Part shown: in pieces, positions 48,994 to 52,788 of the stretch
Position numbering within the stretch: the stretch's first letter is position 1
Layout of the letters: each line of letters begins with the position of its first letter
Position numbers and translations under genes: made by a program
Assembly (NCBI GenBank): GCA_965113315.1
Contig: OZ220363.1
Direction: 5' to 3' (one strand)
DNA length: 64,000 nucleotides
Source of the DNA: Podarcis vaucheri
Taxonomy: Eukaryota
Notes under the pieces: model-generated
Seen by the model: only the letters and a program-made list of their open reading frames with translations
Database searches by the model: none
What the model was told of the DNA's origin: nothing

Positions 48994-50302
48994 ATAAAAA
49001 TACACACTACTCTTGTCCATTACTCTTGTCCATCTTGTATACGACAAAAAGCTTCATTCCATTGTTGTCTCTGGTGTTTTTCACCAGATTCTTTCTTTGC
49101 CCTTCCCACTTGCTGAAGAAAGTCTCTTTCCAAAAGGCTAGAGGAAATATTTCTAGCCATCAATGTCTAACAAAAAAACCCCCCAACAACAACAAAAAAC
49201 ACAAAAAACCCACATATTCTTTGCTGAGTGAGTGACTGGTTGCTGATCACAGTGAATGTGCTTGTAACAGCATCTATGTCTGTCTGTCTTCAATCAACCC
49301 AAATGACATGGAACACAAGAGATTCTATCCAACATGGCACTACACTGAATCCTTACATCAGTGCAACGATTTCTAATTGCACAATGGAACCTTCTCCCAT
49401 GCACCCCCTCGATTTGTTCCAGGGGTTCCCTGAACACTCCTGAAAAATTTGAGGAGGGTACAAGGCATACAGTGTGGGAGGGGGAAGAGGGAGAAGGTCC
49501 CAATGTGCAAGAAGAAATCCTTGACAGGAAAAGTTAGTTGAACGTTACCCATTATGTTCCAGCTTCCTCTGGTTCAGCAAAAGCATTACTTTTGCTAATA
49601 CTATATTAATTTACCGTAATTATGTACCAGCAAGGTAGGCAAACAACAGTATGTATCAGAAGAAAATGCACTGGCTATGAAAGTCACCTCCAGGAATGTT
49701 AATGTGTCCCAAACTTTGATTTTAAATGCAAGGAAGAAGTAGCGCTATCCTGCTTGACATTCACACTACAAATGAAACCGCTATAATTCTGTGCTACTGT
49801 TCAAGAGCACTTCTTAGTTAAATACCCACTATCTGAAGAAAAGAAAGTCATTTTTATCCAGCATCTACAGGAGAAACATTTAGCTTAAGCACCACTTAAA
49901 AGAGTTAATGCACTGCGGCCTCCCTGAAGTGGTGGGAAACACAAGACTCTCTGCTTAGGTTCTGCTTCTGTTTACCCTGTAAACACAAAATCTCAGCAAA
50001 TGTGTAATGCTATTGTTTTTTCCTGAGGTCAGGTAGGGAGAAGAGGGTACTTCCTGCACGCACCAAAATACTCATCCTACCCCTTTTCCTGTTAACTTGC
50101 CCCTGCAGGAGAGGATAGGAGTGCAAAACAGGAAGTAACCACAAGCAAATAAGATTTGGCCAGTCTAAAACAGATTTTCAAAAACTGCCGTAAGAAAAAT
50201 CTCAAGACTGGCAAACTGTCCTTTAAGCATCCCCAACTGTAACAGGCAAAATAAAAAAATTCCTTCCAGTAGCACCTTAAAGACCAACTAAGTTAGTTCT
50301 TG

Positions 50303-50340
50303 GTATGAGCTTTCGTGTGCATGCACACTTCTTCAGATAC
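50303..50340 (-). ncRNA. Minimal type I hammerhead ribozyme motif, sense to the OSBPL11 pre-mRNA
   Basis: Exact reverse complement of 50350-50387, in the left arm of the inverted repeat. Confidence 0.65.
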
Positions 50341-50349
50341 GTATCTGAA

Positions 50350-50387
50350 GTATCTGAAGAAGTGTGCATGCACACGAAAGCTCATAC
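50350..50387 (+). ncRNA. Minimal type I hammerhead ribozyme motif (Penelope-type)
   Basis: GTAT-CTGAAGA-A-GTGTG(CATG)CACAC-GAAA-G-CTC-ATAC: stem I GUAU/AUAC, conserved CUGANGA and GAAA boxes, stem II, palindromic AGCU stem III, NUH triplet CUC. Confidence 0.65.
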
Positions 50388-52788
50388 CAAGAACTAACTT
50401 AGTTGGTCTTTAAGGTGCTACTGGAAGGAATTTTTTTATTTTGACTATGGCAGACCAACACGGCTACCTATCTGTAACTGTAACAGGCAAAAACAAGATA
50501 GGTTGTTTACTTCAGGTCCAAGAAAAGTGGACTGAAGCTCCAGAAAAGAAAAGGAGCACAGCCCACTGGCCCAGTTGATGCTTATCTATCTGTAGAAAAC
50601 CAAACTTATAATGGGGGAAAAACAAGTTGCTTTGCTGTGCTGATGCCCCAAGCTTAGTGTGAAGAGTGGGGAGGACTTGCACCTAACTGGGAGTGATGAG
50701 GGAGTGAGATAACTCTGCCACTGGTCCTGAGAGAGGAACAGTCAGGGGTGCGAGAAGAAGAGATCAGGGGAACTTTCGTGCTTCCCTTGGCAACTGTCCA
50801 TATCTCACATTTTAAAACCCATTGATCTAATGCAATGAACCTTACAAAACAGCTCTGTTCTAAAACAGTACAACTTATTTATATCACAGGCAGGAAATGC
50901 AGTATTAGATCTCTGCAGAGCACTGTGAGGATAGGGAACAGAGCCCACAACACCATGATTTTGCAACACAAAACTACTTATTTGTGGCAGTTCCAGTTGC
51001 TAAACCCTGCTGCCTAGCCTGCATCAAAATCAAATCACGTGAACTAGCTCTCTCTCTGAAATTAAAGTGCTTAAAATGAGGAGCTACACTCCCTACTCAG
51101 TGCTGAGAAGCCTAGAACAAGCAAACAGTTCACAATCAATTTGCAGTTCTGAAACAAATGGCTCACATGTCTGGCCAACGTGCACCACTTAGAAAGTAGC
51201 TCTCCTATCAGTCTCTGAAACCTACCTTTGAAGGGTCTCTGAAGAAAAAGCATAGAAAAGCGGAACAATCCCATAAACAAAGACTCATTTCCTCTCAGCT
51301 AGAAAGTGAAACATGTTTTTAAGCAGAAGGTAGTAAGCCTTAGTGCTCAAGGTCTGTTTCTAGCCCCTTTTACATACCCAACTCCTCCTGCCCTGCCCAG
51401 AATGGGTTAGTTAGTGTCTGTAGATGAGAAGCATGCGTCTACATCCTCATGACCAAGTTAAGAGTCTTGTATGCTTCCACTTACTTTGGCACAACAGTCA
51501 ACAACCCTCGTTGACTTGCTATCTAAGGCATGTTTTAAATTCTGAACTGAGCAGTGTGAAGTGTTGAGATAACCGAAGGCCACTTCAAAATGGCTCAATG
51601 AAGCAGCAGTTTCAGGACTTGATCTGAACTAGAACTCAGTTACAGCATTCACTCCTGAAACATATCACACACAATAGCAGTACATGCCTGCAGCTCACGG
51701 AATGAAACCTCTCAAACTTTGCAACTCCAAAGGCTGCAGCACATATTACGTGTGGCAGATGAACATTTATCACCCTGTGTACAGGCAGTGGAAAAGAACA
51801 GACAGTTTCACCTTTCTAGTGCACACACCACATTTTTGTGTGTGTACACAGAACATTTAGGCTGCTGTTTTATGCATGTTTACTTGGGAGCAACTCAGTG
51901 GAACTTAGTTCTAAGTAGTTCACTGCTAATGTGTGAAGCAGCCCTTTCAATTGTATCGTATATTTTTCAAAAGCTAAAATCTGAAGTTGTACTAAGGAAA
52001 CACATTTCACATTCAGAAGAGATTATTCAAATTTAGTTCCTGCAGAGAGACTGAAAAGAATGTCAGCTAGTGATAAAGCTAAACTGCCATTCATAATAAC
52101 AAGAACGAATTCTAAGGATGATACTCCAGGTCAGCTCTTAGCCTCTCGGTTCCTAAAAGTTCTTCTTCAAGAAACAGGATGCTGTCACCTTCTCTTGGAG
52201 ACTAGGACTTTGCATGTTGTTAAACAATGTTCTCCAGGCATATGGTATGGTTAAAGAGAAACACACCCATCCCCCATGAAACTATTCTGTTGAAATCCCA
52301 AGCATTTAAGACATGGAAGAGAAGGAATGGAATTTTCCACATCTTATAAATAGGCCCAACCAATTTGATTGCATCCCACAGTTGGAACTATGGCACAGGG
52401 CACCAGCACAAAGGCAACTCCCAGAAGAGGTGAGTCCAGGCAAGGTCAGGCACATGAGCTGGAGTTGTTGACCAACAGGAGCCAAGGCAAAGTACATAGA
52501 GAAAGAGAGATCTTTGGGAGCTGTTGTACCAGCAAAGGTCAGTCAGAGATTGAGATGCTAGTACAGATAAATAAACTCCTTCCTGATCAGCAGCTGACTG
52601 CATTATACACCTGATGCCTCCTCCTGAGTAGGCTCGTCCTTCTGAAGCTACCTTGTAATCACTCCTTTGTCAATTCATTACCTACCACAGGGCTTGCCTT
52701 CATCTTAGTTCATGGGAGTTCGGCATGAAGGGGAAAGAGCCTGGGTCCATTTTATGTGTGGTGCAGCAGCTCATCAGGGGCTCCAAGA

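Follow-up and report, generated by a model that had tools for sequence, protein, structure and literature searches.

Within the OSBPL11 gene of the wall lizard Podarcis vaucheri lies a recent insertion of 241 bp which very probably consists of two head-to-head, 5'-truncated ends of a Penelope-like element, likely primed from both ends of a staggered cut, and whose read-through hairpin is predicted to keep its hammerhead ribozyme inactive. It is an ordinary example of a known Penelope insertion pattern, not a regulatory switch. Taken alone the locus matters little: it is a single young member of an abundant repeat family whose mode of insertion is well described. It is nevertheless a tidy test case for inverted Penelope insertions, offering the site with and without the insert, the two start sites, a microhomology at each end and a ribozyme free of mutations, and it can be used as a presence/absence marker among wall-lizard lineages.

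Anatomy of the palindrome and its hammerheads

In the window (the whole 64-kb stretch of DNA analysed here), the segments 50247-50340 and 50350-50443 form a perfect inverted repeat, complementary at 94 of 94 bases. They are separated by a spacer of 9 nt (50341-50349), identical to the first 9 bases of the right arm, and bracketed by two identical 17-mers (50235-50251 and 50476-50492), exactly as a previous sequence-only reading had described them. The direct repeat and the element share 5 nt at the left end and 4 nt at the right. A stretch of 32 nt (50444-50475), the Penelope 'tail', which the sequence-only reading had not named, adjoins the right arm only, with no counterpart beside the left arm, and the spacer together with the end of the left arm makes a perfect palindrome of 18 bp (50332-50349). 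The features are, in order of position:

45273-45342, minus strand: OSBPL11 exon 2, the first of the PH-domain exons; read along the minus strand, it lies 4.9 kb downstream of the insertion
50235-50251, no strand: left copy of the target-site duplication, 17 bp, its last 5 bases doubling as the left-arm end (priming microhomology)
50247-50340, minus strand: left arm, tail-less fragment of a Penelope-type pseudo-LTR (pLTR), sense on the minus (OSBPL11) strand
50303-50340, minus strand: host-gene-strand copy of the minimal type I hammerhead motif, identical to that of the plus strand, with C17 at 50307
50341-50349, plus strand: spacer repeating the arm start; it forms the loop of the hairpin and is likely a scar of joining
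50350-50443, plus strand: right arm, the pLTR fragment of the left arm again, here in sense orientation on the plus strand
50350-50387, plus strand: minimal type I hammerhead motif, A15.1 at 50379, C17 at 50383
50444-50479, plus strand: one-sided Penelope 'tail', 32 unique bases and 4 common to the target duplication
50476-50492, no strand: right copy of the target-site duplication, 17 bp
54918-54986, minus strand: older, decayed Penelope-type hammerhead relic, containing 54948-54935

With arms of at least 16 bp and a loop shorter than 60 nt, this is the sole perfect inverted repeat of the 64-kb window, bar a self-complementary stretch resembling a simple repeat at about 22403-22447. The insertion lies upstream of OSBPL11 exon 2 (the exon that follows matches PDB 2d9x); that the intron is intron 1, as had been claimed, is something we infer, the canonical exon 1 being outside the window. 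Segment 54948-54935 of the older relic is likely an alternative first coding exon of the same gene.

The full minimal hammerhead that had been proposed for each arm, with its extra A before stem II, is borne out in its anatomy. In the plus-strand copy, stem I is formed by 50350-53 and 50384-87, the core spans 50354-60, the extra A is at 50361, stem II has 5 bp, GAAA occupies 50376-79, and stem III is loop-less and palindromic; C17, at 50383 on this strand, is mirrored at 50307 on the minus strand. The core, stems I and II, the palindromic 15.2/16.2 and the NUH triplet are all present, and a by-eye comparison shows that the motif fits the published consensus of the minimal hammerheads of Penelope-like elements (PMC4209133, fig. 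S3). The 28-nt core is matched twice in the 64-kb window and never in 100 shuffles of it, and its exact sequence had 0 matches in each of the metagenome, viral and prokaryotic contig collections. One of the checks proposed at the outset, a search with hammerhead models, here those of Rfam, did not retrieve a hammerhead: over the whole 64 kb there was no match at the gathering score, and none of the 28 matches with E up to 10 was a hammerhead, nearly all of them being sub-threshold miRNA hairpin models that score any long stem, so that a miRNA identity was discarded. Since the Rfam hammerhead models expect a stem III, this miss is not decisive.

A recent insertion and its likely origin

The best-matching DNA run (X1) was compared with two other DNA runs (X3 and X4), which come from another sample under the same species label and from a related species; the small-share rows X15-X20 were left aside. 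Both of them (2/2) display an empty site with a single copy of the 17-bp repeat: in X4 the junction of 50476 with 50234 falls at positions 693/694 of record 16, and in X3 it is at positions 1279/1280 of record 9. The insertion is therefore recent, and absent from the two related genomes tested. Recency had been proposed from the lack of mismatches between the arms; the conclusion stands, but the argument is weak as a clock and was set aside, for zero mismatches bound arm divergence only below 3.1%, against a flank divergence to X3 and X4 of about 1.0%.

Perfect palindromes of high-copy repeats are prone to artefacts of assembly or fold-back, and among the contigs listed none bridges the 9-nt spacer junction and none spans the whole insertion. 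An artefact, which the sequence-only reading had named as a possible refutation, is nonetheless extremely improbable, and the contigs speak against it at both outer junctions. In X1 the left flank-element junction (record 1, 49765-50270) and the right one (record 8, 50457-50964) are seen at flank-level depth, 27.7 and 30.8, with the element in opposite orientations; the flanks are unique and unmirrored, and where the insertion is missing the direct repeat is present exactly once.

The element belongs to a dispersed repeat family with diverse loose ends, represented by 10,295-11,699 contigs per DNA run, and its summed contig depth is about 1-2 million, against 16-31 on most of the flanks, a figure that should not be read as a copy number. 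Family contigs have loose ends that accumulate at 50444 (31 in X1) and at 50479/50480 (42 and 31 in X1, 25 in X4, 36 in X3), and those at 50478-50481 recur in all four runs. The tail, 32-36 nt long, is bounded by these two preferred end points, 50444 and 50479/80. Sister copies have inversion joints of their own: all 15 displayed, from a total of 276, tie a left-arm to a right-arm position, at points that differ. Because none of these 15 keeps the full core in both arms, the symmetric copy looks like one end of a truncation range, not a built design.

A high copy number, symmetric termini and a small size could suggest a MITE-like element or a hairpin retrozyme, non-autonomous and moving as a fixed palindromic unit; the arms also seem about 1.3-2 times as deep as the tail when mirrored positions are summed, a rough arithmetic. 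Yet the displayed joints vary from copy to copy, a DNA transposon would not account for a tail on one side only or for a duplication of 17 bp with microhomologies at the ends, and RNA reads extend upstream of the arm start into more element sequence (212 and 155 reads, agreement about 0.8). No fixed unit with terminal inverted repeats common to the copies was found, and we regard this reading as highly improbable. The traits that are found are those of the Penelope-like (EN+) elements: a pseudo-LTR hammerhead, a head-to-head inverted and 5'-truncated partner, a one-sided tail, a target-site duplication proven by the empty site, and a dispersed repeat family. They support the Penelope-type origin already proposed for the palindrome; the assignment and the clade would rest on architecture and motif, since no reverse transcriptase ORF or family consensus is tied to the sequence.

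An inverted partner, a one-sided tail of 30-40 bp and a target-site duplication have been reported for Penelope-like elements (PMC3846280; PMC8557442), while an anole element, PAc, cuts and extends both strands in vitro, starting at two sites that bound the tail (PMC11167929). We may thus picture the insertion as follows. The element endonuclease would nick the two strands 17 nt apart; priming would take place from the top-strand end at the tail-less site, and from the bottom-strand end where the tail is; both cDNA copies would extend to the first base of stem I, and their two ends would then be joined with a slip of 9 nt. Through this proposed priming from two ends and joining of the cDNAs, the palindrome would be a by-product of integration. 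Microhomologies of 5 and 4 nt are present at the outer junctions.

It is also possible, if less probable, that a single cDNA primed at the tail end snapped back at the 5' end of its template and copied itself, the opened hairpin joining the other target end by microhomology. The spacer fits such a process well, as it forms an 18-bp perfect palindrome with the left arm; the arms begin at the same base and their alleles are identical at 7/7 family-variable sites, and self-priming has been suggested for the palindromic junctions of rotifer Penelopes (PMC3846280). Against it, the tail-less arm ends where other family copies end (50444), as a second start site predicts, in vitro the anole protein uses two start sites and extends both strands (PMC11167929), and the displayed sister joints are asymmetric. 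From this single copy, twin priming is retained as the likelier of the two routes.

Hairpin, ribozyme and RNA editing

Because the arms point away from the centre, the antisense arm is made first in transcripts from either strand, and the OSBPL11 pre-mRNA does meet it before the ribozyme, as the sequence-only reading had foreseen. That reading went further, proposing that the transcript could fold either as a hairpin or as a self-cleaving ribozyme, with the antisense arm as a built-in lock in cis, and here it does not hold. In predicted folding, forcing the ribozyme fold costs 62.6 kcal/mol relative to the hairpin, and the catalytic core is 88-100% paired as soon as it has been made. In published tests, minimal hammerheads did not cleave as monomers (PMC4209133) and the anole hammerhead did not cleave without its protein (PMC11167929). 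Since there is one sense ribozyme per strand, and such motifs need a dimer or a protein, there is probably nothing to lock. A sense dimer was also folded (predicted at -11.1 kcal/mol, vs -30.6 for a competing duplex via the palindromic stem II), and these energies were not accepted as evidence on ribozyme activity. The likely fate of the OSBPL11 pre-mRNA would be to carry a neutral intronic hairpin, to be edited by ADAR and then to have it spliced out.

Could the antisense arm still be a selected or regulated lock, the pre-mRNA switching to self-cleavage when editing or a helicase opens the hairpin? Both arms retain an intact core, the geometry places the antisense arm first, family transcripts are edited, and the introns of Xenopus are depleted of tandem hammerhead retrozymes, a hint that active ribozymes are harmful within genes (bioRxiv 10.64898/2026.07.22.740005). 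We consider it very unlikely all the same, given the predicted energy barrier and immediate zipping, the single sense copy per strand, an insertion missing in close relatives and hence not conserved, and edited positions that include the catalytic core itself. The absence of any read-end pile-up on the element among 1,199 RNA reads of one run points the same way, weakly, as fragmented libraries blur ends.

No RNA run was listed among those holding the sequence; the RNA run used comes from a related species and has no depth on the flanks of the locus, so that the claim of a double-stranded ADAR substrate is upheld for the family, not for this copy. In family transcripts from that species 9 sites bear an A-to-I signature, and one of them lies in the catalytic core; RNA-only changes occur in 14 of 28 element rows, and all 14 are A-to-I in type and direction, in a comparison with the DNA of other species. 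The A>G change at 50379 (A15.1) is seen in 26 of 234 RNA reads of one mate class. An inosine at position 15.1 is expected to cause loss of hammerhead activity, an effect on which a literature search found nothing. A lone extra C after the arm end, in 3 of 12 displayed rows (from 243), evokes a capped RNA that would begin with the first base of stem I; this is kept as a lead only, because the pile-ups at 50340/50350 are partly forced by the ending of the reference and because RNA reads continue upstream.

In its accessible part, the study of Porath et al. (2017, PMC5625713) describes the anole Penelope as massively A-to-I edited, at more than 40,000 sites, and accounts for the palindromic frog Harbinger, though not for Penelope, by noting that self-folding repeats need no second copy. 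The family-level signal ties the inverted geometry to this hyper-editing, a link that we did not find stated in the literature searched. A conjecture, doubtful as it may be, is that lizards have in their head-to-head Penelope stubs a counterpart to the inverted Alu pairs, with the difference that each stub is born as a perfect short-loop hairpin in one insertion event. If this were true, it would explain why Penelope dominates A-to-I hyper-editing in lizards; presence/absence polymorphism would give individuals differing loads of double-stranded RNA; the stubs would persist in introns since their geometry masks the ribozyme on either strand, with ADAR rewriting the catalytic A15.1; and over time they would be put to new use as exons, which appears to have happened to the older relic at 54948.

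Comparison with known systems

The closest parallel is that of the inverted, tailed EN+ Penelope insertions (Arkhipova et al., 2013, PMC3846280; Craig et al., 2021, PMC8557442), which share with the lizard locus a 5'-truncated copy with a head-to-head inverted neighbour, a one-sided tail of 30-40 bp, a target-site duplication, a palindrome at the junction and proof by an empty site. The lizard locus differs in that it retains only pLTR ends and no ORF, its arms start at the same base, each with a whole hammerhead, and its duplication is of 17 bp, whereas rotifer Penelopes have 8-10 bp according to the accessible part of PMC3846280. Its ribozymes resemble the minimal type I hammerheads of metazoan Penelopes (Cervera and de la Pena, 2014, PMC4209133) in their short stem I, conserved core, extra nucleotide before stem II and loop-less stem III with palindromic 15.2/16.2. 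By eye, they depart from the turtle motif (Chrysemys picta, fig. S3) by a single compensatory pair in each of stems I and II, and from the hammerheads of that study by a palindromic loop II of 4 nt, a C at position 17 and cores about 18 nt apart; opposite-strand pairs 100-700 bp apart had already been reported there in Schistosoma.

Another lizard element, PAc (Poseidon of Anolis carolinensis; Frangieh et al., 2024, PMC11167929), likewise has a pLTR hammerhead and two genomic end points bounding its tail. Compared by architecture, not by sequence, it differs in that its ORF starts at stem II, whereas the only ATG in the Podarcis stem II meets a stop after 9 codons. The animal non-LTR retrozymes (bioRxiv 10.64898/2026.07.22.740005) are also non-coding, hammerhead-bearing and Penelope-derived, but they form head-to-tail tandems with at least two ribozymes on the same strand, while the lizard locus is an inverted pair with one hammerhead per strand. 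Finally, beside the anole Penelope and the frog Harbinger, as the accessible part of PMC5625713 presents them, self-folding in the Podarcis locus would come from the geometry of an inverted insertion.

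Anatomy and age of the palindrome

Over their full 94 bases the two arms (50247-50340 and 50350-50443) are perfectly reverse-complementary, the spacer between them duplicates the 9 bases with which the right arm begins, and the segments 50235-50251 and 50476-50492 are identical, which bears out the sequence-only reading in its description of arms, spacer and direct repeat. A 32-nt stretch (50444-50475), the tail, adjoins the right arm only. Two copies of the 28-nt hammerhead core lie in the window, as against none in 100 shuffles, and the motif agrees with the minimal-hammerhead consensus of PMC4209133 (papers are cited here from excerpts), in keeping with the claim of a hammerhead on each strand. 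In the model search proposed for that claim, Rfam matched no family in the window at gathering score, and the 28 weak matches near the site included no hammerhead; as the Rfam hammerhead models expect a stem III, this is not decisive. Stem II and its loop (50362-50375) form a complete 14-nt palindrome, via which a pair of sense copies is predicted to anneal, not as an active dimer.

Four of the 24 matching sequencing runs were compared with 49765-50964, three of DNA (X1, X3 and X4; 12 other DNA-type runs matched at least half of the words) and one of RNA (X23). X4 bears the species label of X1 and comes from a different sample, while X3 is from a different species; in each, one contig fuses 50234 straight to 50476, an empty site with a single repeat copy, which sets the insert size at 241 bp. 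X1, the best-matching run, is possibly the source of the window and hence not independent. One of its contigs crosses the left junction and reaches 50270 in the left arm, another links the tail, from 50457, to the right flank (junction depths 27.7 and 30.8), and its listed contigs include no piece with the empty site; the palindrome centre is spanned by no contig among those listed. The palindrome is a recent insertion, as had been proposed, in view of the empty sites in X3 and X4, from which the flanks diverge by about 1.0%. The absence of arm mismatches, first offered as the sign of youth, bounds arm divergence only to less than 3.1%, and the empty sites are therefore the better evidence. 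Near 50009-50015, X3 and X4 carry about 10 extra bases in a C-rich stretch, absent from the window.

A Penelope-type family and its probable route of insertion

Each DNA run places between 10,295 and 11,699 contigs on the element, a depth that is not a copy number. Their loose ends concentrate at 50444, the end of the tail-less arm, and at 50479-50481, the tail end, so that the element overlaps the right repeat by 4 bases and the left one by 5. In all 15 joints displayed, of 276, a position in the left arm is linked with one in the right arm, the places varying, and none of these 15 has the full core in both arms: sister copies displayed are likewise head-to-head pairs, each truncated anew. 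Penelope-like elements typically show an adjacent inverted truncated copy, a 30-40-bp one-sided tail and a target duplication (PMC8557442; PMC3846280), and hammerhead pairs on opposite strands, 100-700 bp apart, occur in Schistosoma (PMC4209133). Judged by architecture and motif, by which the family is known here, all the tested hallmarks of an endonuclease-type Penelope insertion are present, and the Penelope origin first suggested is retained. Identity as a retrozyme, compared with excerpts of bioRxiv 10.64898/2026.07.22.740005, was rejected, as was that as a MITE. Within the family, a CpG-type change at core G12 (50376 / 50314) accounts for about 20% of depth and U at position 17 (50383 / 50307) for 22-31%; the window copy retains an intact core. 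The palindrome is real, young and of an already described insertion kind; for Podarcis, no paper on such palindromes was found in the literature searched, most subscription journals being outside its reach.

In PAc, the Poseidon element of Anolis carolinensis, both target strands are cut and extended, and reverse transcription begins at two tail-bounding sites (PMC11167929). By analogy, a staggered cut, 17 nt apart, would leave two 3' ends, the top one pairing 5 bases at the tail-less site and the bottom one 4 bases where the tail ends; the two cDNAs would each stop on the first base of stem I before being joined with a 9-nt slip. We lean towards this twin priming. Snap-back self-priming, proposed in PMC3846280, would fit the 18-bp central palindrome, and we hold it to be rather unlikely. 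The sense RNA is also predicted to form a long stem between arm (50401-50408) and tail (50453-50460), with the tail-less end point within it, a structure that the reverse transcriptase may bind.

The host gene and the fold of its transcript

OSBPL11 lies on the minus strand, with an oxysterol-binding exon and a PH exon matching PDB 2d9x, and its product is 98-99% identical to Podarcis and Zootoca proteins. The 760-residue Podarcis protein places 12 coding exons from 45347 down to 22756; its residues 1-65 find no match within the window, so that canonical exon 1 is outside it, presumably beyond 64000. The placement in OSBPL11 intron 1 thus stands as a position 4.9 kb upstream of exon 2, while the intron number is one that we infer, helped by a candidate alternative exon (54948-54935). 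The other features are as follows.

Other features in the window
~54986-54918, minus strand: decayed Penelope-type hammerhead relic (nhmmer E 0.003)
14146-16462, plus strand: exons of a kinase gene (Pkinase matches), which we take to be TGF-beta type II receptor-like, convergent with OSBPL11
49364-49398 and 49489-49523: inverted repeat of 35 nt (86% complementarity, 90-nt separation), possibly a small DNA-transposon relic
11815-12172, 46096-46446 and 6669-6938: SINE-like dispersed repeats, 76-80%
13617-13818 with 32971-32770: 202-nt repeat pair, 94%, opposite orientation

The hammerhead relic scores 60.5, whereas the best of 500 shuffles reached 49.5, and its catalytic core is mutated. Its stem I strand supplies an ATG at 54948, with a canonical donor after 54935; spliced to exon 2, this exon keeps the reading frame and agrees at 4 of 5 N-terminal residues with lacertid proteins annotated as 'isoform X2', which make up 3 of the 120 proteins compared. 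The old relic has likely been exonised as an alternative OSBPL11 exon.

On the host strand of the young insertion, the hairpin ensemble is predicted at -202.4 kcal/mol, against -139.7 with the ribozyme stems forced, and the core would be 88% paired once 9 sense-arm bases are made, 97-100% from 12 onward. Because the arms diverge from the centre, the antisense arm is indeed transcribed before the ribozyme, on either strand, and there is a single sense ribozyme per strand. Minimal hammerheads were found not to cleave as monomers and to cleave little as dimers (PMC4209133; PMC6765202), the PAc motif did not cleave without protein (PMC11167929), and the X23 reads show no site where many molecules start or end, which is weak evidence. 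Predicted hairpin dominance, a single sense ribozyme per strand and inactive lone motifs together argue, on these models, against a two-state switch, and a ribozyme activity to lock is probably lacking as well; the antisense lock and the choice between hairpin and self-cleaving fold are abandoned.

Family transcripts and comparison with other Penelope elements

X23 comes from another species (about 12% read; 1,199 reads on the element region) and has no depth on the flanks, so that any editing signal concerns sister copies. From the 40 variant rows displayed (6 more hidden), 12 flank rows without RNA depth were dropped, and half of the remaining 28 element rows are RNA-only at a threshold of our choice (<1% in each of X1, X3 and X4). 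These 14 consist entirely of A>G and T>C changes, always in the mate class that A-to-I editing would give, with strand asymmetry (p<0.05) in 13, strandedness being assumed, the DNA runs representing other species than X23, and some DNA-shared variants being strand-skewed as well. They collapse to 9 distinct sites (5 in sense, 4 in antisense transcripts) at about 7-33%, levels that may largely reflect a small number of strongly expressed loci. The A-to-I edits foreseen for the insertion thus appear as a putative signature on its relatives. No candidate site has a 5' G, and the strongest lies in UAG, a preferred ADAR context. A15.1 of the catalytic core, where inosine would be expected to harm hammerhead cleavage, is among them (26/234 vs 1/213).

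Family RNA reads also extend upstream of the arm start (50350) into a pyrimidine tract with an AG one base before stem I, which we note only as a lead to a possible 3' splice site. Of the 12 sister joints displayed, 3 have a single additional C next to the arm end (50340/50350), equivalent to an added G before stem I; were it copied from a cap, the template RNA would start at the ribozyme edge.

No paper linking these palindromes to editing was found in the literature searched, which covered few subscription journals. Anole Penelope is massively edited (PMC5625713); where the excerpts of that paper appeal to self-folding, they do so to explain a frog repeat and not Penelope. The motif differs from the turtle hammerhead of PMC4209133 by one compensatory pair per stem, compared by eye. 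The pyrimidine tract and AG resemble Drosophila Penelope, where the intron end maps at helix I (PMC4209133; for background on this intron, PMC2377424).
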